DNA from: Dehalococcoidia bacterium
Lineage (GTDB): Bacteria > Chloroflexota > Dehalococcoidia > Plut-88900
Assembly: GCA_965249275.1 (NCBI GenBank)
Contig: CBDFLQ010000007.1
Coordinates: 608,001-672,000 of the forward strand
Direction: 5' to 3'
Length of the DNA: 64,000 bases
How positions within the stretch are numbered: the stretch's first letter is position 1; every line of letters begins with the position of its first letter. Shown here piece by piece: positions 14,930-40,466 of the stretch. The notes below the pieces were generated by a model. That model was not told where the DNA came from, ran no database searches, and saw only the letters and a program-made list of their open reading frames with translations. The translations under genes and the position numbers were made by a program.

Positions 14930-15880
14930 TCAATTCTGCGATGGGACCTTCATCAGATTTTCGCTCAGCAAACGGATGTGCTCCGGCCCTATTCCGCAGC
15001 ACCCGCCAATGAGCCGGGCCCCGGCTTCCACCCAGGTTTCCGCCTGCCGTAGATAGTCGCCCGGGGAGATCACCGCATCGAAATTCCAGTTTGGACGGCT
15101 CCAGTACCCCGAGTGCGCGTACGCCCCCATGGGCCCGTCCCAGTTCTCTTTCATAACTTCAAGCGATGGCACTATGTACTCCACCTCCGAGTGCATGACA
15201 ATTACCATGTCTCCACCCAGGGACTTCACGCCGTCCAAGACTTCCTCAAAGGTCAGCCCCTCCACAGTCGAATACTCGGACAGCGCCATTACGGGCTTCC
15301 CCGGCTCGACCATGCTGCTCAAGCCCGACCACACCGGTATCCCGGTTGCCAGTGCCGCTTCCACTATCACGCTGGCCCGCTCCACGTCCCTCAGCATCTC
15401 CAGAAGGAACAGATCGACACCCTCCTCCGCCAATATCTCCGCCTGTTCCCGGTAGCTTTCTTTGAGGAGGTCGAGCGGTGGCGACTCGTGCCCCAGAATC
15501 TCGGTGTAAGCCCCGAACGGTGATATCGATCCCGCCACAAGGACTGTCCTCCCCTCTGATGCCTCATCCACCGCTTGTTTGGCCAGCGACACGGCCATTG
15601 CGTTTATCTCCCGGGTCGCATCACCCTGTCCCGCAGCAGACAGGCTGTGTCTCGCCGAGGAGAACGTGTTTGTTGTAATCACGTCGGCCCCCGCACGAAT
15701 GTAATCCTTGTGCACTTCTAGCAGGGTTTCACTGCCAATCTTGCTCCCAAGCCCCGACCACACCAGCTGGTCCATCGGCACCCCCCGCTTTTCTATCTCC
15801 GTGCTGATCGCGCCGTCGAGGAGCACAACCTCTCCCCCGTCCAATCGTTCTTTCACGATGTCGTAAGCTGCGCTGGCCAT
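14930..15880 (-). CDS. Homocysteine S-methyltransferase family protein
   Basis: LLDGAISTE, AGADVITTNTF, VAGSISP, IGGCCGIGPEHI; start ATG 15880 with GGAGGG SD. Confidence 0.88.
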   Translation of the reverse strand: MASAAYDIVKERLDGGEVVLLDGAISTEIEKRGVPMDQLVWSGLGSKIGSETLLEVHKDYIRAGADVITTNTFSSARHSLSAAGQGDATREINAMAVSLAKQAVDEASEGRTVLVAGSISPFGAYTEILGHESPPLDLLKESYREQAEILAEEGVDLFLLEMLRDVERASVIVEAALATGIPVWSGLSSMVEPGKPVMALSEYSTVEGLTFEEVLDGVKSLGGDMVIVMHSEVEYIVPSLEVMKENWDGPMGAYAHSGYWSRPNWNFDAVISPGDYLRQAETWVEAGARLIGGCCGIGPEHIRLLSENLMKVPSQN

Positions 15881-16008
15881 CTGGCAATTCCCTCCCTGCG
15901 TATGGATTCCACCTACGCACATACCCTTGGCCCCGACAGTATATCCCACCTTCTTAAACCGATGGTCTAGCCCACAAACAGGTGTGATATCACTCCGCAC
16001 CTTCCTCC

Positions 16009-16493
16009 CATCCCGAGGCCTCGCGAGGGATCTCAAACGCCTGCTTGCACAACACAAATGCCTATCCGACCATCCTTGTCCCCCTTCCACCCCCTCCCAT
16101 CATTCCCGACCCCTATCGGGCGGAACGTGCGCCTATGGCGTGAATCCATCCCTTACCTCTCTCGTCATTCTCGTGCCCCGACACGGGAATCCATCCCCGG
16201 TGCGGGGCCGCTCATCCTGAGCTAAGTCGAAGGGTCGAGCGATGGGTGGCCCACCTTAGCCAATTCGTTGCCCGTGCCACCCCCCACCCCCTCCCGTCAT
16301 TCCCGGCCCCTATCGGGAATCCATCCCCCTTCCCCCCCAGTACTGAACTAGAGGGAGACGTTGGCGCGTCTGCGCCAACGTCTCCCTCTGTTCTTATCTC
16401 CCCCTCTCTCTTGAAGGCCCTAAGGGTCGAAGATGTCGTAGATGCGCCTGGGCGTGCGCCCGTGGCGTGAGAGGGGGACAAAAGGGGTGAGGG
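16009..16493. repeat. Island of REP-like palindromic elements of several families
   Basis: CATCCCGAGG..GAGGGATCT (16009-16033). Three (G)TCATTCYCG..GAATCC copies (16100-16147, 16164-16192, 16296-16322). GCTCATCCTGAGC..GTCGAAGG (16204-16241). Perfect 18-bp hairpin (16350-16389). CCCCTCTC..GAGAGGGG..GGGTGAGGG (16400-16493). Confidence 0.8.
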
Positions 16494-16541
16494 TTCCCCG
16501 GTGGGGTTGGGGCGGCGTCCCCTAAAAGTGACACGAACCCC

Positions 16542-16571
16542 TTGACCTCACCTGAACATCCGTGCTATTCT
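16542..16571 (+). promoter_or_regulatory. Sigma-70 promoter overlapped by a LexA-like (GAAC-N4-GTTC) box
   Basis: TTGACC-18 bp-TATTCT with TGn extended -10. GAAC-atcc-GTGC at 16554-16565 is one mismatch from the Firmicutes/Dehalococcoides SOS box. Confidence 0.55.
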
Positions 16572-16577
16572 CCCCAC

Positions 16578-17160
16578 CGTTCGAATACCAACCCAACTAT
16601 CTCAAGGAGGAACCAAAAACCCAGGGAAGCCCACCCGACCCACCAGAGGATTCAACGCCTCAGCCCATCCCAACGGCCTTCGCGCAGGCCCGCGGCACAA
16701 GTGACCGGCGCCATCTCCTTTTCCCATCGGGTCCCGTGCCCCTTTCCCTGGTAGTCAGGCGATGGAAGATGCCTGGACGGCGTCATAGTGGACCGGCCAT
16801 CCTCCGCCGAGACCCCGTCTCGGTGGTCGGTTAGCAGCGAGCTTACGCTTTATCAAGCATGGGGTGGCGGACCGGCTATCCCCGTCCGAGACTCCCTCTC
16901 GGAAGTTGGCCCGCCTGCGAGCTTACGCCATATCAAGCAAGGGGCCGTTGGGCCGCCTAGACCCTCGGGTGGCCCACGCAAATACGATATCTGAGGGGGC
17001 TACAGCCCGATCACTGGCCCCCATCATGCCTGTGGGCATTCAGAGGCGGGGTCACAGCCGGACTATCTCCCCGGAAAGTCCGTGTTTATCATCGAGCGTT
17101 AGGGGTGGCAGGGCTTCCATGCCTCGGAGCAGCCCAACATCCGCCAGCAAAACGGGGCAA
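16578..17160 (+). ncRNA. Candidate large structured ncRNA: closed 5' domain plus tandem pseudoknot array
   Basis: No credible ORF; a promoter lies immediately upstream. Contains a 79-80 nt duplicated module and further stem-loops whose C-rich loops pair with a downstream G run. G-U pairs occur on the + strand. Folded by eye only. Confidence 0.45.
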
Positions 17161-17230
17161 AACCGACCAATCAGCGTCTTCCATCGTCAACCCTCCCAAC
17201 AGACAAAACCCCACCCCACCCCACAATCGA

Positions 17231-17255
17231 AGATGGAACATCCGCCTCTGGAGGA
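17231..17255 (+). repeat. Short dispersed repeat AGATGGAACATCCGCCTMTGGAGGA
   Basis: 24/25 identical to 49269-49293. Confidence 0.8.
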
Positions 17256-17304
17256 CTGAAGAAAAGGCCGGTGTGTCACTAATCTACCGAACGAGTACAC
17301 CCGA

Positions 17305-17333
17305 TTGACAACCGACCAGTCCAAAAGCATACT
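17305..17333 (+). promoter_or_regulatory. Sigma-70 promoter for the LLM-comDE-like operon
   Basis: TTGACA-17 bp-CATACT, followed by AAGGAGG SD before ATG 17384. Confidence 0.7.
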
Positions 17334-17383
17334 CGCCGGGTGTTCCGCCGAGCGCAACGTGCCCCGAGATAAAGGAGGGATTC

Positions 17384-18562
17384 ATGACACTGCCCGACCG
17401 CATGAAGTTCGGCATTTTCATGGCCCCCTTCCATTGGGCCGCCGAAAATCCTACCCTCTCCTTTGAGCGCGACATGGAACTCCTGGAGTGGCTCGACCAG
17501 CTGGGCTACGACGAAGCCTGGATCGGCGAGCATCACAGTGGAGGCTGGGAGACCATCGCTTCCCCGGAGATATTCATAGGCGCCGCCGCCCAGCGCACCA
17601 AGCACATCAAACTGGGCACGGGCGTCCTCAGCCTTCCCTACCATCATCCCCTCATGGTCGCCAACCGCATGATCCAACTAGACCACATGACCCGAGGCAG
17701 AGTGATGATGGGAGTCGGGCCCGGGGCCCTTGTCGGCGACGCCTTCATGCTCGGCATCGACCCTCCTCTCCAGCGCCAGCGCATGGACGAGGCCCTCAAC
17801 ATCATCCTCCGCCTCTGGACCGAGACCGACCCCATCACCTACGAAGCCGACTGGTTTACCCTCAAGGAGGCCACCGTCCACCTTCGCCCATATACTCTGC
17901 CCCACATCCCCGTCGCAGTTGCCGCCTCCTATTCCCCCGCTGGAATGGTCTGCGCCGGTAAATACGGCCTCGCCGTCCTCTCCCTGAACACCATCTCGGT
18001 CCCCGGCGCTGCAGCCCCCGACCTTGCCAAGTTCTGGGACATCGCCGAGGAGACCGCCGACAAGTACGGCAATACCGTCAGCCGAGACGACTGGGGCATC
18101 GTCATTCACGTCCACCTCGCCGAGAGCCGCAAGGAGGCCATAGAGCAGGCCCGAGAGGCCTCAGGCCGCTACCAGAAGGAGTATTTCGAAGACACCCTGG
18201 GCCTGCCAACCGCCTTCGAAGGGCCCCAGGACAAGATCATCGACCACATGGTGGCCACCAATAACTGGTGCGTCGGCACCCCCGACGACCTTGTCGAGAC
18301 CATTCACCGGCTTGAGGAGGAGTCGGGCGGATTTGGAAGACTCCTCATTCAGGCCACCGAGTGGGGAACACGTGAGCAGGTACTCCACAGCTACGAACTC
18401 CTTGCCCGCTACGTAATGCCTCGCTTCCAGGGCTCGGTAACCAGCCTCCACAACTCCCGAGAGTGGTCGGTCAAAAAACGCGAGGAGCTCGTCGCCCTCA
18501 ATATCAAGGCCATGGACAAGGCCAAAGCCGACTACGTCAAAAACGTAGCCGCAGGTCCCTAG
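17384..18562 (+). CDS. LLM-class flavin-dependent monooxygenase (limonene 1,2-monooxygenase-like clade)
   Basis: FGIFMAPFH, DEAWIGEHHSGGWE, LGTGVLSLPYHHP, GVGPGAL, SYELLARYVMP. Confidence 0.9.
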   Translation: MTLPDRMKFGIFMAPFHWAAENPTLSFERDMELLEWLDQLGYDEAWIGEHHSGGWETIASPEIFIGAAAQRTKHIKLGTGVLSLPYHHPLMVANRMIQLDHMTRGRVMMGVGPGALVGDAFMLGIDPPLQRQRMDEALNIILRLWTETDPITYEADWFTLKEATVHLRPYTLPHIPVAVAASYSPAGMVCAGKYGLAVLSLNTISVPGAAAPDLAKFWDIAEETADKYGNTVSRDDWGIVIHVHLAESRKEAIEQAREASGRYQKEYFEDTLGLPTAFEGPQDKIIDHMVATNNWCVGTPDDLVETIHRLEEESGGFGRLLIQATEWGTREQVLHSYELLARYVMPRFQGSVTSLHNSREWSVKKREELVALNIKAMDKAKADYVKNVAAGP

Positions 18563-40374: not shown

Positions 40375-40466
40375 GGAGAGGTGCTGGAGTGGCCGAACAG
40401 GCGCGACTGGAAATCGCGTAGGGGGTGAAAGCTCTCTCGTGGGTTCGAATCCCATCCTCTCCGCCA
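40375..40466 (+). tRNA. tRNA-Ser (anticodon GGA)
   Basis: GGAGAGG acceptor stem pairs with CCTCTCC-G-CCA. Anticodon arm CGCGA-CT-GGA-AA-TCGCG, long variable arm, GGTTCGAATCCC T arm. Confidence 0.97.

Follow-up and report, generated by a model that had tools for sequence, protein, structure and literature searches.

A stretch of about 370 nt in the genome of a Dehalococcoidia bacterium (positions 16790-17160 of a 64-kb window; "the window" is the whole stretch of DNA that was analyzed, and coordinates refer to it) was originally predicted to be a stand-alone array of six tandem H-type pseudoknot modules, forming an undescribed structured RNA. The flagged region is real, structured, undescribed, and RNA-like, but it is part of a whole: it is the helix-closed central domain of a larger, promoter-driven cassette with many copies. 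In our best explanation, which we consider fairly probable, the stretch is the exchangeable middle of a multicopy noncoding cassette that is restricted to one genus, driven by its own promoter, and placed next to host promoters, and the first two units of the array are a recent duplication of one module, whose copy number is 2 or 3. The cassette spans ~0.75 kb (about 16527-17300), is noncoding, and has a near-consensus promoter. Its parts would be an optional terminator-like hairpin module, a sigma-70 promoter, a 5' frame, and a closing helix with a hairpin-rich domain of 311-543 nt inside it and a 3' frame behind it. Transcription of the + strand would give a structured RNA of ~0.7 kb.

First, the cassette is a dispersed multicopy repeat that, among the genomes searched, occurs in one genus only. 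We compared the window's own genome (G000; 2.9 Mb and 87% complete) to other genomes, including relatives from the same genus (G001 to G005 among them). With 16780-17180 as the query, blastn matched seven of the eight remaining genomes of the genus (each 1-13 times) and none of 52 genomes from outside the genus. The nine genomes together have about 450 members of the family. The 5' part of the cassette (16536-16790) is present in all nine genomes of the genus, with 54 matches of at least 100 nt in G000 alone; in a class-wide search in which two candidates were scored per genome, it was found in none of 292 other genomes. An invariant box of 29 nt matches the species collection exactly at 79 sites, all of them in records titled "MAG: Dehalococcoidia bacterium" (MAG, metagenome-assembled genome). 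Cassette copies are 70-98% identical to each other, and the similarity extends from about 16527 to 17231-17300. A full-text literature search, seen as titles and the openings of abstracts, returned no description of this family.

The features of the window's copy are as follows.

16277-16523, + strand: optional module upstream of the cassette (U-module), with a perfect 18-bp hairpin (16350-16367 / 16372-16389) followed by TTCTTATCT; terminator-like
16527-16534, + strand: left copy of an 8-nt inverted repeat, AGTGACAC, whose partner is GTGTCACT at 17273-17280
16542-16571, + strand: sigma-70-type promoter of the cassette, TTGACC, 18-nt spacer, and TG-C-TATTCT (an extended -10 box), with 9 of 12 hexamer matches
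16604-16751, + strand: 5' frame, from alignments of 13 and 30 copies
16758-16772, + strand: 5' arm of the closing helix (15 bp), GGCGATGGAAGATGC
16788-16866, + strand: unit 1, with helix P1 (16791-97 / 16826-32), helix P2 (16807-13 / 16817-23), the hairpin GCG-AGCTTA-CGC, and a AUCAAGCA-GGGG tail
16867-16946, + strand: unit 2, with P1 (16867-76 / 16905-14, including an A.C mismatch) and P2 (16885-91 / 16897-903)
16949-16976, + strand: unit 3 hairpin, TGGGCCGCC / GGTGGCCCA; moderately conserved
16995-17039, + strand: unit 4, with GGGGGC...GCCCCC (16995-17022, invariant) and the hairpin ATGCC-TGT-GGCAT (17026-17039)
17059-17105, + strand: unit 5, an H-type pseudoknot with the stem CGGACT / AGTCCG (17059-64 / 17077-82) and the loop CCCC (17069-72) pairing with GGGG (17102-05)
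17111-17159, + strand: unit 6 as proposed, with the stem GGGCT / AGCCC and TGCCTC pairing with GGGGCA
17174-17188, + strand: 3' arm of the closing helix (15 bp), GCGTCTTCCATCGTC
17189-17300, + strand: 3' frame, containing GGAGGACTGAAGAAAAGG, GTGTCACT (17273-80), and the terminal motif CCGAACGAGTACAC (17287-17300)

Second, the central domain is bounded by a helix whose two arms (GGCGATGGAAG... and ...CTTCCATCGCC) are present in all 54 copies in G000. The arms are complementary at an average of 14.8 of 17 positions. The inner five pairs are GACGC/GCGTC in 15 copies (and in 12 more with a one-base bulge) and GGTCC/GGACC in 11 copies, and these two main types of arm differ by three compensatory changes.

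Third, the cassette has a promoter that points into it. Aligned copies share TTGAC, a spacer of 17-18 nt, and TG-n-TAnnnT; in 30 copies from G000, TTGA of the -35 box and CTA in the -10 box are invariant. Transcription would start near 16578, as judged from the position of the promoter. Behind it, the 5' frame begins with an invariant Shine-Dalgarno-like box, AAGGAGG (16604-16610), which is not followed by a start codon. This box can pair with an invariant CUCCUU (16715-16720), and RNAalifold pairs AGGAG with CUCCU in 29 of 29 copies, with no variation in either strand. A second helix of the 5' frame, between CCAGGGAAG (16621-16629) and UUUCCCUGG (16743-16751), differs between subfamilies (GGGAAG/CUUCCC or GGGGGAA/UUCCCCC). 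A hairpin at about 16673-16697 varies in the sequence of its stem between copies but keeps its pairing: by eye (alignment A4), its variants include GGCCU/AGGCC, GGGCGGC/GCCGCCC, GGUCGC/GCGAC, and GAGCGGC/GCCGCUC. RNAalifold gave just 16 pairs for the 5' frame, and we did not adopt its result as the structure.

Fourth, the middle of the cassette is exchangeable. By similarity, the central domains of the 54 G000 copies form 10 clusters, with 13, 12, 10, 6, 4, 3, 2, 2, 1, and 1 members, and the window's type is one of the singletons. We compared three orthologous loci between G000 and G002 or G005, upstream of genes of the amidohydrolase, GlnRS, and CoA-transferase types. At these loci, identity is about 85-92% across the 5' frame, the 3' arm, and the flanking DNA, while the sequence between the arms cannot be aligned: G002 or G005 has the domain with the unit array, and G000 has a domain of another type. 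The swapped segment begins and ends at the closing helix. The simplest explanation for these alignments would be exchange of domains by gene conversion between copies, probably with the conserved frame serving as homology arms. No central domain was inverted relative to another copy, and among the 54 central domains in G000, only the window's copy contains long-period tandem repeats.

The tandem repeat in the window's copy comprises units 1 and 2. The original prediction described unit 2 as a diverged copy of unit 1, and Tandem Repeats Finder agrees (16790-16944, period 79, 1.9 copies, 79% matches). It also described the stretch as units of one architecture; of these, only units 1 and 2 are copies of each other. 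We identified 41 elements with the window's type of domain and aligned 39 of them, all except those of G004 near 883,300 and 1,122,000. A profile search of these 39 elements found 87 units, with two units in 30 elements and three in 9. A covariance model built from the units found 91 of them in 8 of the 9 genomes of the genus, always in arrays and always at elements that we already knew of; in G000, it found the two units of the window and three weak matches (E = 0.3-0.7) inside other cassettes. The module of 79-82 nt, comprising P1, P2, the 3-bp hairpin, and the AUCAAGCA-GGGG tail, would thus have been duplicated in tandem in this type of domain, and slippage or unequal recombination would be the simplest route to arrays of two or three.

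The comparison of copies supports the original claim that selection acts on RNA base pairing. Across the 39 copies, the fraction of paired cells is 97% for P1 of unit 1 and 90% for its P2; P1 of unit 2 is paired in 95% of cells, with a mismatch at its middle pair in 19 of the 39, and the P2 of unit 2 has one pair that is G-C in 25 and A-U in the other 14. When the 87 units are pooled (80 distinct rows), 94% of P1 cells are paired and 5 of its 10 pairs show changes on both sides. One pair of P1 is G-U in 64 of the 80 distinct units and G-C in the other 16, and 185 P1 cells in all are G-U. One pair of P2 is A-U in 48 distinct units and G-C in 31. The 3-bp hairpin shows no variation. The mini-pseudoknot between GCUU and AAGC, which had also been proposed, is 93% paired, and its pair G62-C85 is G-U in 12 rows. 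Pairing between the C run and the G run of units 1 and 2 is possible in 88% of pooled cells (88-100% of cells overall), and both runs are essentially invariant. Overall, the P2 hairpin is solid, P1 is supported by the comparative data and not by the energy model, and the pseudoknots of units 1 and 2 are no more than possible.

For the remaining hairpins (39 copies), the outcome varied. The unit 3 stem is 85% paired, with one pair that is C-G in 22 copies, G-C in 8, and unpaired in 9, and its covariation is limited; the pairing of its loop with GAGGG, at 87%, is little different from controls that were slid by two columns (83%). Within unit 4, the hairpin at 17026-17039 (unit 4b) has two pairs that are A-U/U-A in 22 copies and G-C/C-G in 17, and its median predicted pair probability is 0.90. 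In unit 5, three pairs of the stem have changed on both sides, and the pseudoknot is paired in 100% of the copies, with an outer pair that is G-C in 18, G-U in 15, and C-G in 6; on this comparative evidence, the switch is a real compensatory change for an H-type pseudoknot. The stem of unit 6 is only 66% paired, and the halves of its pseudoknot are paired in 47% and 91% of cells (in the 22 full-length rows). By these alignments, unit 6 is limited to the window's clade.

These results bear on the original prediction of a stand-alone array of H-type pseudoknots, whether made of self-cleaving units like those of hepatitis delta virus (HDV), tandem aptamers, a protein sponge, or a nuclease-resistant scaffold. 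All of the strings quoted in that prediction are present, in place or within 1-2 nt; the tandem repeat exists and is structured; in units 1 and 2, the C4 and G4 runs hardly vary; and the pseudoknot of unit 5 has its compensatory change. Against this, the stretch is never found outside the larger cassette, of the six units just two are homologous to each other, conservation does not extend to unit 6, and the C and G runs of units 1 and 2, which do not covary, could equally pair between units. Also, the pattern of a C-rich loop pairing with a downstream G run is not above chance in the single sequence. We counted hairpins of at least 5 bp whose loop forms at least 4 bp (at least 3 of them G-C) with a segment 5-35 nt downstream, and found 9, compared to 7.83 ± 1.12 in 200 dinucleotide shuffles; 54 of the 200 shuffles reached 9, as did the - strand. 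The sequence is rich in G+C, and true pairings can be separated from accidental ones only by comparing the 39 copies. As for known RNAs, the only match in the window to the models of Rfam 15 at the gathering score is a tRNA at 40375, which agrees with the original claim that no known family is involved. Even at E ≤ 10, the region 16000-17500 has just weak chance matches to microRNA or long noncoding RNA models (16099-16535), with none in 16790-17160. The models included HDV-type ribozymes, HEARO, OLE, GOLLD, ROOL, raiA, group II introns, and T-boxes. The loose likeness to HDV-like ribozymes that had been noted is limited to nested stems and a loop proposed to pair downstream; units 1 and 2 lack P1.1 (according to the original prediction), no HDV-type model matches, and the pairing of their C and G runs is without covariation. 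We consider a stand-alone pseudoknot array to be very unlikely.

We then considered whether the cassette is merely a repeat at the DNA level, such as a miniature inverted-repeat transposable element (MITE) or a repetitive extragenic palindromic (REP)-like element, with hairpins that act as DNA and an incidental transcript. Like a MITE, the cassette is multicopy, dispersed, and variably present at orthologous loci. Near its ends is a short inverted repeat, AGTGACAC / GTGTCACT, the closing helix is also an inverted repeat of 12-15 bp in the DNA, and the genome has 22 rve-type transposase genes, several of which adjoin cassettes. But the structure is that of one strand. As originally claimed, the G-U wobbles fit the + strand only, and this is borne out in the aligned copies; read from the opposite strand, the many G-U pairs would be C.A mismatches. 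Compared to shuffled sequences, 16780-17170 gives a better fold on the + strand (z = -2.41; none of 100 shuffles folds as well) but not on the - strand (z = -0.94; 16 of 100 fold as well). Furthermore, a near-consensus promoter is aimed into the element in 30 of 30 aligned copies, and many covarying internal helices lie far from the ends. A repeat that matters only as DNA therefore seems improbable to us; hairpins in single-stranded DNA of the top strand are still an alternative to RNA structure.

The short inverted repeat may be a terminal inverted repeat or a protein site. GTGACA of the left copy is kept in most of 13 copies (alignment A1), and its partner on the right is set 20 nt in from the conserved 3' end.

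We also considered a decayed or cut-down protein-coding gene, such as a remnant of a phage large terminase. The original prediction stated that the stretch has no credible open reading frame (ORF). Taken literally this is incorrect, as ORFs of 131 amino acids (16864-17259) and 68 amino acids overlap the stretch, but the noncoding reading behind it is supported. Some copies have longer open frames, with 235 amino acids in L017 and 240 in L026. Neither of the window's two ORFs has a match in Pfam at E ≤ 1, nor do any of 16 ORFs from the window and its relatives, and 10 ORFs gave no PHROG match better than E = 0.27; a PHROGs search of the window's ORFs gave one weak match, for the 68-amino-acid ORF, to a family of unknown function (E = 0.35). 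Terminase_6C (PF17289) had no match at E ≤ 10 in the six-frame translation of the entire G000 genome, while control genomes were positive (the terminase test thus covered the whole genome by Pfam model and, for ORFs, the window's type of domain only). The longest open frames had a median of 143.5 amino acids in 16 of the 54 G000 copies (those that match the 29-nt motif with at most 4 substitutions), compared to a median of 120 and a 95th percentile of 195 in shuffled sequences, so they are no longer than expected by chance. Finally, copies differ by units of 79-82 nt, which is not a multiple of 3, and by indels of 1-2 nt. A coding origin is extremely unlikely.

To understand how the cassette relates to its surroundings, we consider the locus itself, whose neighbors are as follows.

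14930-16090, - strand: homocysteine S-methyltransferase-type gene, the upstream neighbor
17305-17333, + strand: host promoter of the monooxygenase gene, outside the cassette (TTGACA, 17-nt spacer, CATACT)
17384-18562, + strand: luciferase-like monooxygenase gene, the downstream neighbor (Pfam Bac_luciferase, E = 2.5e-47)

The flagged stretch lies in the 1.3-kb gap between these two genes. In G003 and G001, the genes are just 80-100 bp apart, compared to about 1.35 kb in G000. Both of these genomes keep the promoter of the monooxygenase gene without the cassette, and homology resumes 4 nt before its TTGACA. At the locus of an enoyl-CoA hydratase gene (L011), the situation is reversed: the cassette is present in G001 and absent from G000, and the sequences become homologous again at TCCG-TTGTCC, once more 4 nt ahead of the -35 box. 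Across G000, 14 of the 21 canonical 3' ends are followed by TTG at +4 or +5, as compared to 5.8% of random positions. Because sister genomes differ in whether a given locus has the cassette, it would spread as DNA, by means of an enzyme supplied in trans, and we propose that its copy number reflects selfish spread. On the left, further repeats (15957-16526) make the boundary indistinct. CAC is found at both junctions of the window's locus, though the flanks also differ by a deletion.

The adjacency to promoters raises the question of whether the cassette is instead a portable promoter with a long structured 5' leader that reads into the downstream gene, so that the tandem units would be regulatory modules in cis. 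The cassette ends 4 nt before the host's -35 box, no terminator-like site lies between it and the next gene, and a contig from an RNA library bridges 17241-17365. At 14 of 16 loci that we checked with Pfam (some of which are orthologous to each other), the downstream gene is co-oriented with the cassette; at the other two, it is convergent. However, the host genes have promoters of their own, which are present without the cassette in the sister genomes. The downstream genes have no pathway in common: they include the monooxygenase, FolD, the enoyl-CoA hydratase, a tRNA synthetase, a peptidase of family S58, and genes for spermidine synthesis and FAD synthetase. The absence of Rfam matches extends to riboswitches and T-boxes, and 70-98% identity among copies is unlike what is expected for leaders that evolved independently. 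A cruder count by ORFs finds co-orientation at just 32 of 54 loci, and a single low-depth contig does not prove a single transcript. Regulation of the next gene by a leader is thus quite doubtful as the main explanation.

For expression, contigs from RNA libraries (three runs from two studies) cover 16652-17032 at 96-99% identity. Those on 16652-16822 have 1-3 differences from the window, while the contigs on 16734-16941 and 16759-17032 have 11 differences in 208 nt and 11 in 274 nt, respectively. These contigs are compatible with transcription of the cassette. None of the contigs from the three runs lies on 15600-16205, at the upstream gene, which run X1 (whose kind of library is not on record) does cover; we count this gap as no evidence. 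The bridging contig (X16 record 10, depth 2.2) includes the 3' frame, the host promoter, and the 5' untranslated region of the monooxygenase gene, and is a weak hint of read-through from the cassette. We also considered whether two joints in run X1, which skip 16121-17227 and 16327-17230, might be empty sites, but 24-28 other letters lie between their ends, so they are replacements from other copies or organisms.

Several observations weigh against the explanation that we favor, that of an exchangeable domain within a promoter-driven, structured RNA cassette. The RNA-library contigs carry no information about strands or ends and may stem from DNA. No terminator-like site was found on the + strand after the 3' frame, so the RNA may be a mere leader. 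The crude ORF count, although noisy, assigned the opposite orientation to 22 of the 54 G000 copies and the same orientation to 32. No clean target duplication was seen at the loci that we compared, and no transposase with matching ends was identified; the insertion sequence (IS) family compared was the one beside L010, L011, and L017, whose end is, by eye, unlike those of the cassette. The pseudoknots of units 1 and 2 are conserved without covariation, and G62-C85 of the mini-pseudoknot is nonstandard in 13 distinct units, mostly with A opposite A. In partition-function folding of the 22 of 39 rows that are complete at the 3' end, the median pair probability was 0.00 for P1; it was also 0.00 for the alternative in which P1 forms between units, as compared to 0.83 for P2. 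Because the units are repeats, their strands can pair between units, and RNAalifold, given the 39-copy alignment, cross-pairs the repeated strands and joins the C run of unit 1 to the last G run, a structure that we did not adopt. The predicted fold of the unit array itself is therefore tentative. Our best guess for the function is that a stable RNA would use its conserved frame to present a variable, multivalent domain to a protein partner, but this role as a protein-binding scaffold is pure inference.

A bolder possibility is that the cassettes are a new class of mobile RNA gene, which homes to sites 4 nt upstream of -35 boxes, brings its own insulating terminator and promoter, and makes an RNA of ~0.7 kb whose conserved frame displays exchangeable "cargo," in this case an array of pseudoknotted hairpin modules that varies in number. 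The RNA, or the structure of its gene, would act in promoter targeting or by titrating a transcription or translation factor, and the 10 or more types of domain per genome would reflect function and not drift. We view this as unlikely.

The cassette resembles several known systems without fitting any of them. BOX elements of Streptococcus pneumoniae have the form boxA-boxB(n)-boxC, are under about 300 bp, and are not known to have a promoter of their own or a long closing helix. Like them, the cassette is a dispersed, modular, intergenic repeat with a predicted RNA fold, in which a variable number of tandem internal modules (two or three) lies between conserved flanks. Unlike them, it is about 0.75-1 kb, is driven by a promoter, and can have any of at least 10 types of central domain. 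MITEs, mobile insertion cassettes, and Correia-type elements are nonautonomous and mobilized in trans, and some of them carry promoters. Our cassette likewise encodes no protein, is multicopy, is present or absent at orthologous sites, has a short inverted repeat near its ends, and has a promoter aboard. It differs in that its inverted repeat is only 8 nt, no target duplication was established and no matching transposase was found, most of it is covarying RNA structure, and it sits at a fixed distance from -35 boxes.

Among large RNAs, OLE, GOLLD, ROOL, and raiA are also over 500 nt, with many covarying helices, one or more pseudoknots, and unknown functions. They are mostly single-copy genes or have few copies, whereas the cassette has ~50 copies per genome, an exchangeable middle, no Rfam match, and a distribution limited to one genus among the genomes searched. 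HEARO or omega RNAs are carried by palindrome-associated transposable elements (PATEs) derived from IS200/IS605. They are similar to the cassette in being multicopy, mobile, highly structured noncoding RNAs that border a mobile element beside flanking DNA, but the cassette RNA would be 3-4 times longer and has no Rfam match. Using Pfam models at E ≤ 0.01, we found no TnpB (PF07282) or Y1 transposase (PF01797) in G000, as far as its 87% complete assembly goes, while control genomes were positive; this argues against an IS200/IS605 PATE with an omega RNA. Similarly, the same assembly has no match to the DEDD recombinase of IS110-type elements (PF01548), so we rejected an IS110-type element with a bridge RNA, and none to reverse transcriptase (PF00078), which, along with the lack of a group II match in Rfam, led us to reject a retroelement (a group II intron or a retron). 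Lastly, STAB-SD is a stabilizer at the 5' end of the cry3A mRNA of Bacillus thuringiensis. The cassette shares with it a Shine-Dalgarno-like box near the 5' end of the transcript with no start codon behind it (16604-16610), but the cassette's box is predicted to pair with the invariant CUCCUU inside the RNA.

Provided that the RNA is real and has a function, about 1.3% of this genome (54 copies of ~0.72 kb in 2.9 Mb) belongs to a single undescribed family of structured RNAs. The family would combine three features that are not known together: mobile-like spread, a fixed distance to promoters, and a conserved frame with interchangeable structured domains. It would also offer a natural series for studying large RNAs, with one frame, at least 10 inserts, and arrays of two or three modules; it could show how large RNAs grow by module duplication and domain swapping; and it could expose how selfish DNA recognizes promoters. 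More practically, cassettes break assemblies and leave long intergenic regions that appear to be empty, so they are worth masking or labeling when MAGs of Dehalococcoidia are annotated.

We made some other observations about the mobile elements and repeats around the cassettes. An IS of the rve type is inserted at the identical spot, between GTGACA and CGAxCCCC-TTGAC and 7 nt upstream of the -35 box of the cassette, at three loci from two genomes (L010:2120-3400, L017:3-1283, and L011:1-1236). In G000, rve genes lie directly beside cassettes at C7:460031/460852, C7:521651/522219, C7:510553/509931, and C6:525070/526183. Either the IS targets this site, or both elements prefer DNA upstream of promoters. 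Another IS, of ~1.06 kb, has at least 12 copies in G000 (C6:57256, 65046, 282701, and 524509; C7:169748, 347823, 452109, and 999576; C3:8894; and others). Most of these copies are about 98% identical to the copy in G002, and two are at 90%; this similarity points to recent transposition in the lineage.

Upstream of the monooxygenase promoter, the native sequence CCGACAGTATATCCCAC (15934-15956), which the empty sites of G003 and G001 have as well, resembles the terminal motif CCGAACGAGTACAC. Going by their likeness, the two could share a protein-binding site or give a clue to the choice of target.

The optional U-module, which accompanies many copies of the cassette, has an older partial copy in the window at about 16080-16276. 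Of 26 motif matches in G000, 19 have a perfect stem of 18-20 bp followed by a U-rich tract, and the hairpin looks like an intrinsic terminator on the + strand. The hairpin (16349-16390 in the window) lies between the conserved flanks CAGTACTGAAyT and GTTCTTATCTCCCCCTCTC; there are 22 distinct hairpins among the 26 matches, and their stems are always perfectly paired. Short REP-like repeats are also found between the upstream gene and the cassette (16080-16120 and 16277-16317; 16139, 16184, and 16314). One of them is CCCCTCCCGTCATTCCCGGCCCCTATCGGGAATCCATCCCC, with a 6-bp hairpin, and similar sequences lie upstream of the empty enoyl-CoA hydratase site in G000.

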